Assembly: GCF_048403405.1 (NCBI RefSeq)
Contig: NZ_CP183129.1
Length of the DNA: 64,000 bases
Strand: one strand, 5' to 3'
Source: Escherichia coli
Lineage (GTDB): Bacteria; Pseudomonadota; Gammaproteobacteria; Enterobacterales; Enterobacteriaceae
The first letter of the stretch is position 1. Each line of letters opens with the position of its first letter. Positions 22,786 through 23,742 of the stretch are shown in pieces. The translations under genes and the position numbers were made by a program. Below the pieces are notes generated by a model that saw only the letters and a list, made by a program, of their open reading frames with translations, did not search any database and was not told the origin of the DNA.

Positions 22786-23742
22786 TTAGTACTCGATCCA
22801 AGGATCGCGCTTGCTTTCAGGCAAGGGCTGCTCTAATGCCTGCATTTGCTCTGCCGAGAGTCCGGTAATCTTTTGTATCCATTCAGGATCTGCCCCATTC
22901 TGCAACAACAATCGGAGGAGGCTCCGTTCCCCTTCTACTTTCCCTTCTTTCCTCCCCCTCTCCCTTCCCAACAGCCATCCATCATTATGAATTCGCTCTG
23001 CAATCGTCATTATTCGCTCCCTTTGTTGTGGCATTCGACTGGTTAGTTCGCTGATAAACTCTTTAAAACGCGCTTCATCGCCAGTCAGTAAAATGTAATT
23101 TAACAGCGCGGTTATCTGGCTGTCATTAGCACACTCTGTAACCAGTAATAGTACCAGTTGATCGATAAGCCCCATCAGATCGCGCTGGCGAATATGCTTT
23201 TGGATCAACTCCAACAGGGCGACTCTGCGATGCTGCACAATCTCGTCGTCTGGCACGACAGTGACATCCACCAGCGGGAACGCTGCGGTATAAAGCTTCC
23301 GTGCGGTGGTCGGGTCAGCAAATTCGTCCAGCCAGCACAGGGACCAGGGATAAGGACTACGGCTACCGTGATAAAACAGCATCGGGATGACCAGCGGTAG
23401 CGGCCGGCGTTTATCATGCTCGATATAGCGCTGCATCACCGCCATGGAATATCGCATCAGGCGAAAGGCCATATGGATATCCTCGCGGCTCTGATGTTCA
23501 ATCACCACATAAATATAGCCATCGCCTTCGCGGGTCTTTACCGACCACAGAATATCGGAATGTAGCGCCCGCAATTTTTCATCGACAAAGCTGGCGGATT
23601 CCAGTTTTAAGCTGTCGAGATCGCACAGTTCACGTAAATCTTTGGGTAAGTGGATCTCCATAAAATCCCGCGCGGTGTCAGGGTGCGTGAGAAAGGATTT
23701 AAATAATGCGTCATGCGGCGTGCTGGTTGTGAAGTTTGTCAT
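22786..23742 (-). CDS. rpnD: Rpn-family recombination-promoting nuclease (PD-(D/E)XK, transposase_31 family)
   Basis: 318-aa uninterrupted ORF ([28 protein letters not shown]...) matching the YhgA/Rpn family. Confidence 0.8.

Follow-up and report, generated by a model that had tools for sequence, protein, structure and literature searches.

We analysed a window of 64,000 nucleotides of Escherichia coli DNA (NCBI RefSeq assembly GCF_048403405.1, contig NZ_CP183129.1) and focused on the gene at 22786..23742, which lies on the minus strand, as do all features of this gene given below. The initial annotation had described a single uninterrupted ORF of 318 amino acids, and the ORF listing returned that frame at identical coordinates, with an ATG start, 318 codons followed by a stop, and no stop inside. 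The gene is flanked by yjiR (21130..22542, plus strand) and mdtM (24200..25441, plus strand), the position that rpnD holds in K-12. This position and the near-identity to K-12 RpnD identify the gene as the orthologue of rpnD, and we refer to its long product as RpnD-L. The closest complete genome is that of TUM14771, in which the same 957-nucleotide coding sequence is annotated as an intact Rpn-family protein. Residues 8–210 (23113..23721) form a YhgA-like or Transposase_31 domain with a PD-(D/E)XK core, which matched Pfam PF04754 over profile positions 1–202 of 203 (288 bits against a cut-off of 21, E = 4.7e-86). The NCBIfam model for the Rpn family, TIGR01784, scored 167.4 bits against a cut-off of 52.1. 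The 318-amino-acid ORF is not a chance frame.

We noted several further features in and around this locus. The 11-codon gene ytiE (b4823) lies between rpnD and mdtM (24012..24047, plus strand) and its sequence equals that of K-12. On the other side, where a REP-like spacer separates the 3′ end of rpnD from yjiR, there is a sub-threshold match to the Rfam small RNA family ES036 (CssrF) at 22695..22737 on the plus strand (30.3 bits against a gathering threshold of 37.6, E = 0.0016), the sole Rfam result at the locus. Following the TUM14771 annotation, a single penicillin G acylase gene lies between yjiA and yjiS (approximately 17897..20437), where K-12 has the Immigration Control Region (yjiT onward), and upstream of it the window carries a full hpa (4-hydroxyphenylacetate) operon (approximately 2900..14100). 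A segment of about 2.7 kb, bounded by yjiL/DUF3343 on one side and by the yjiK homologue on the other (approximately 29013..31710), is missing from K-12; it includes a coding sequence at approximately 29382..31448 for a 688-amino-acid pentapeptide-repeat protein. The adjoining yjiK/yjiJ block (31710..33290) shows 80.8% identity to K-12, against 95–98% in neighbouring genes, and judged by this identity appears to be unusually diverged or replaced.

The residues on which the nuclease depends are in place. Mutational data define the residues required in RpnA (PMC5350276), and alignment of RpnD from the window to K-12 RpnA, and to RpnA, RpnB, RpnC and RpnE together, showed that D11, D63, E82, Q84 and R94 (23461..23712) are all present, as is the PDDE motif with D166 (23245..23247). 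These residues are kept in 92–99 of 101 diverse family representatives. The near-whole PF04754 profile and the key RpnA residues thus confirm that the gene encodes a full PD-(D/E)XK family protein, as had been proposed initially. By homology, RpnD-L would be expected to act as a nuclease; Mg-dependent, Ca-stimulated, non-specific DNA endonuclease activity has been demonstrated in vitro for RpnA only (PMC5350276).

Database names for such proteins ('putative transposase', 'ISNCY family transposase') would make the gene the transposase of an insertion sequence. The Pfam family is indeed named Transposase_31, and the best-scoring NCBIfam model was NF007418 ('ISNCY family transposase'), but its 392 bits fall short of the cut-off of 583. 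We found no terminal inverted repeats beside rpnD, where the only flanking pair was 15 nucleotides long with 80% complementarity, and the gene is single-copy at a fixed chromosomal position in the 4,254 complete genomes that carry the locus (median of one place per genome). Inverted repeats, target-site duplications and defined ends are lacking from rpn genes in general (PMC10400941). On the sub-cut-off score, the missing inverted repeats and the fixed single copy, we rejected an insertion-sequence identity for rpnD, which we regard as barely credible, and treat the gene as a resident Rpn-family nuclease gene.

The frame that is open in the window is closed in K-12. MG1655 rpnD (b4584, NC_000913.3 4568998–4569918) is flagged as a pseudogene in RefSeq, and a pairwise alignment with K-12, which the initial annotation had put forward as a means of locating the damage, returned a single lesion, at codon 104, where the window has CAG (Gln; 23431..23433) and K-12 has TAG (amber). 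We ruled out a frameshift as the K-12 lesion; the K-12 frame contains no stop apart from this one in-frame amber. The suggestion that rpnD is disrupted in K-12 is therefore borne out by the pseudogene annotation and the amber, and the K-12 gene is not intact and full length. The further statement, that K-12 is annotated with two fragments named yjiP and yjiQ, agrees with an older split rather than with the present single pseudogene: the tags b4338 and b4339 are absent between mdtM (b4337) and yjiR (b4340), and the fragments correspond to the ORFs flanking the amber. Downstream of the lesion, the C-terminal part of K-12 rpnD is 36 bp (12 codons) shorter and its last ten or so codons differ. The premature stop had already been reported by Kingston et al. 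in 2017 (PMC5350276, Table S1 footnote c). We considered amber suppression as the source of the RpnD activity described there, as the strains carry glnX44, and rejected it; the allele used had been repaired (PMC5350276, Table S1 footnote c), and its activity can be explained without suppression.

To place both alleles in the population, we counted them by megablast with 55-nucleotide queries, placing the polymorphic base at position 28 to make each 28-nucleotide seed span it. The TAG amber occurred in 340 of 5,426 complete E. coli genomes, and among the matches listed its carriers were mostly laboratory derivatives of K-12 (MG1655, BW25113, MC4100, J53, XL1-Blue and NEB strains). CAG at codon 104 was found in 3,792 genomes, and taken together the two alleles cover 4,132 of the 4,254 genomes with an rpnD locus. 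In a rank-stratified sample of 14 non-K-12 loci, rpnD was intact in 12, the pseudogenes being those of O157:H7 86-24 and LR-27. Owing to these allele counts and the largely intact sample, we take the open gene as the norm in E. coli and K-12 as the exception, the amber being a specific feature of the K-12 lineage. The K-12-type haplotype with amber codon 104 was nevertheless also matched in EcN_Sk (5.06 Mb) and H10, whose genomes do not resemble K-12. In a Nissle genome close in size to EcN_Sk and with nearly equal match coordinates, the four-unit repeat segment described below is found. Recombination with DNA from K-12 is one possible source of the haplotype in EcN_Sk and H10; mislabelled or misassembled records are another.

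The surroundings of rpnD also vary between lineages. In 382634_2f, APEC O18 and RM14723 (loci L015, L016 and L017), rpnD encodes 306 amino acids with one repeat unit and adjoins yjiN, and mdtM is missing; RM14723 in addition has a truncated yjiR and a frameshifted yjiN.

Genes of the rpn family have been described as genes-within-genes, in which an internal promoter and start give rise to RpnS, a protein identical to the C-terminal domain of the full-length RpnL (PMC10400941). We found the corresponding start in the window at 23008..23022: a Shine–Dalgarno sequence, AGGGAG (23017..23022), is followed by a 6-nucleotide spacer, CGAATA, and the ATG of Met245 (23008..23010). Met245 aligns with Met244 of RpnA, an experimentally confirmed internal start (PMC10400941), and 86 of the 101 family representatives have Met in this column. 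By analogy with RpnA-S, RpnB-S and RpnC-S (PMC10400941), initiation here would yield RpnD-S, a predicted intragenic antitoxin of 74 amino acids that is in frame with RpnD-L (22786..23010). Internal transcription start sites have been reported for all K-12 rpn genes (PMC10400941), and a candidate sigma-70-like promoter, picked by consensus match only, lies at 23097..23126, approximately 85 nucleotides upstream of the internal ATG (read as 23126..23097; ATGACA, an 18-nucleotide spacer and TAAATT, with a TG); this region contains three such sites against 2.2 expected by chance, a number at the chance level.

Taken by itself, the C-terminal domain gave weak results. A sequence search matched it to RpnA-S (PDB 7TH0) with an E value of 0.7, and it scored 14.6 bits against Pfam DUF4351, below the cut-off of 25. 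An AlphaFold model of RpnD-S built from a shallow alignment was helical with a mean pLDDT of only 64; in a fold search with this model, 7TH0 ranked first among 350,542 chains, a non-significant match with an E value of 2 and a TM score of 0.55. Because both kinds of search with the domain alone are weak, the C-terminal homology rests on the full-length collinear alignment. PADLOC v2 had no model matching RpnD, to which we give no weight since its 2023 library may lack Rpn models.

Comparison of alleles defined a hypervariable region of four 4-amino-acid units at residues 256–271 (22930..22977), whereas K-12 RpnD has a single unit (YIKG), and the three units that it lacks make up the 36-bp length difference. 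The 16 E. coli loci compared included alleles with one, two, three and four units. In RpnD-S the first repeat starts at residue 12, inside the range of 8–20 residues after the internal Met at which the repeats of RpnS proteins start (PMC10400941). Approximately 1,450 complete genomes, ATCC 25922 and Nissle included, cover at least 80% of the segment comprising the internal start and the repeat, and about a third of the genomes with an rpnD locus have the four-unit form. Tandem Repeats Finder called no array in rpnD, even at a minimum score of 30, because the units are too divergent in DNA; they are visible only by comparing alleles. DNA identity to K-12 was 97.8% for yjiR and 98.1% for mdtM, against 95.5% for the N-terminal part of rpnD (nucleotides 1–732) and 87.3% for the C-terminal part (nucleotide 733 to the end). 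The gene is thus more diverged from K-12 than the genes that flank it, its C-terminal part most of all, and this is the pattern that a fast-evolving specificity region would produce.

On this evidence we consider it highly probable that the gene in the window is the intact chromosomal rpnD of E. coli and, by homology, a toxin–antitoxin system of the gene-within-gene type. The initial annotation had suggested that the strain may retain an active recombination-promoting nuclease, which is only half of the current picture of rpnD: judged by its relatives, a second product, an antitoxin started inside the gene, most likely holds the nuclease inactive. RpnS has been shown to bind full-length RpnL and to block DNA cleavage, and the number of 4-amino-acid repeats in the first RpnS helix varies by strain and sets the specificity of L/S pairing (PMC10400941). 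Neutralization was demonstrated with RpnA, RpnB and RpnC; the one member for which phage defence was shown is RpnP2, which is plasmid-borne and protects against T-even phages (PMC10400941). For each of the five K-12 rpn genes the RpnS product has been detected, and RpnD-L was not detected in MG1655 (PMC10400941), which fits the amber. For the allele in the window, homology points to synthesis of RpnD-S, neutralization of RpnD-L and possibly a role in phage defence.

A model for rpnD can be assembled from these parts. By homology with RpnA, RpnB, RpnC and RpnP2, RpnD-L would be a DNA endonuclease of poor specificity and, in the absence of the short protein, toxic. The internal promoter would give a short transcript, and its translation from Met245 would supply the 74-amino-acid RpnD-S. 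This protein, being the C-terminal helical domain of RpnD-L, would bind that same domain to form an L2S2 complex in which DNA cleavage is blocked, and the number of 4-amino-acid units in the first helix (four in the window and one in K-12) would decide which S pairs with which L. If S were lost or dissociated, events reported to occur during phage infection and at alkaline pH, L would be free to cut DNA and phage growth would be limited. RecA-independent recombination on overexpression would then be a by-product of DNA breaks.

The recombination phenotype has also been read as the physiological role itself, in which case rpnD would serve RecA-independent recombination and horizontal transfer rather than toxin–antitoxin function or defence. 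A repaired K-12 gene ('rpnDc'), when overexpressed, raised RecA-independent recombination 4.7-fold, caused a 94% loss of viability in recA cells and induced the SOS response early; effects were weaker when its last 45 residues were removed (PMC5350276). The recombination assay that the initial annotation had called for has thereby been done, on a protein 96.7% identical to that of the window over residues 1–244. Next to the gene, moreover, is the variable region in which K-12 has its Immigration Control Region. Deletion of rpnA, rpnB, rpnC and rpnD, however, left basal recombination unchanged (PMC5350276), and the overexpression constructs co-expressed RpnS unknowingly (PMC10400941). Fast-varying repeats together with a conserved internal start are explained by the toxin–antitoxin model and not by a recombinase. 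We therefore consider a primary role in recombination unlikely and retain the toxin–antitoxin model.

The allele in the window carries one private substitution. Over 41 kb the window is 99.985% identical to TUM14771 with few differing sites, one of which falls within rpnD and changes codon 106 to TAT (23425..23427), replacing His with Tyr (H106Y). The site is two codons from that of the K-12 amber. We asked how unusual this residue is. All 15 other RpnD alleles have His106, as do K-12 RpnA, RpnB, RpnC and RpnE; the Tyr codon was found in 0 of 5,426 complete E. coli genomes, and in a collection of 15 billion proteins the exact Tyr protein (WP_418511828.1) occurred on one contig against 344 contigs for its His parent. 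Across the 101 diverse representatives, position 106 is His in 80 and Tyr in 7, Tyr being the second commonest residue. The substitution could mean that the open frame hides a toxin half that is weakened or inactive, with the gene mainly supplying RpnD-S in a state near to that of K-12. The invariance of His106 in RpnD alleles and paralogues and the rarity of the Tyr allele would agree with such a loss, as would the independent breakage of the long product elsewhere, in K-12 by the amber, in O157:H7 by a 25-bp duplication and in LR-27 by an ERIC-like insertion. Yet the presence of Tyr in 7 of the 101 family representatives led us to downgrade inactivation; position 106 is, moreover, not among the residues tested in RpnA, and with few differences per 41 kb against TUM14771 a single private SNP is what would be expected of ordinary drift. 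We thus think it improbable that the toxin half is impaired: H106Y is probably tolerated and inactivation by it is unlikely, and we continue to regard the gene as encoding both products.

The two pseudogenes of the sample differ in structure. In E. coli O157:H7 86-24, 25 bp, ACGATTGCAGAGCGAATTCATAATG, are tandemly duplicated precisely at the internal start of rpnD (positions 286–1243 of locus L012). The long product is frameshifted after residue 254, and a free-standing RpnD-S ORF of 66 amino acids with two repeat units is recreated from the second copy of the ATG; what remains is effectively a gene for the N-terminal domain alongside a separate rpnS-like gene. In E. coli LR-27 (positions 285–1354 of locus L013), a 125-bp insertion interrupts rpnD at codon 151; it has GTGAATCCCCAGGAGCTTACA...GTAAGTGACTGGGGTGAA and, going by the ERIC consensus, presumably belongs to the ERIC/IRU type of intergenic repeat. 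Three cases would fit a broader trend in which RpnD-L has been inactivated repeatedly and independently across E. coli lineages while a translatable RpnD-S ORF was kept: the K-12 amber, for which the short protein has been detected, the O157:H7 duplication, and H106Y in the window at a mostly conserved His. We hold such a trend to be very unlikely. If true, it would suggest selection for 'orphan' antitoxins, perhaps shielding cells against incoming rpn alleles.

The finding in this window is correct but ordinary, as the stop in K-12, the activity of the repaired gene and the toxin–antitoxin model are already known from published work. Its practical value, though modest, lies in what it says about K-12. 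This strain is unrepresentative at rpnD, and what MG1655 teaches about RpnD applies to a strain with the short product only, whereas in most wild E. coli, the strain of the window included, the gene is complete for both toxin and antitoxin. Repeat-unit number would be expected to decide which antitoxin silences which toxin, and this pairing would matter whenever rpn alleles meet, during horizontal transfer and in phage-defence assays.

We finally compared RpnD of the window with the named members of its family. The nearest is the common wild 318-amino-acid RpnD (WP_000181172.1 in TUM14771, also in ATCC 25922 and Nissle), which has the same length and the same four-unit repeat, H106Y being the sole difference. 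K-12 rpnD (b4584, formerly yjiP/yjiQ) occupies the same yjiR–mdtM locus and has the same internal start context, AGGGAGCGAATAATG. With its amber read as Gln, K-12 RpnD is identical at 236 of 244 positions over residues 1–244 (96.7%); the aligned C-terminal part shows 77% protein identity (48 of 62 residues) and 87% DNA identity. The differences between the K-12 and window genes are TAG or CAG at codon 104, one or four repeat units, the last ten or so residues, and H106Y in the window. K-12 RpnA (YhgA) aligned with RpnD of the window from end to end with 166 identical positions. RpnA is a paralogue and not an orthologue, as its equivalog model NF007361 gave 371.9 bits against a cut-off of 583, and RpnD differs from it in a longer C-terminal tail and more repeat units. 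RpnP2-LS, a plasmid-borne antiphage toxin–antitoxin system, belongs to the same family and has the same gene-within-gene architecture, a likeness drawn from the literature (PMC10400941).
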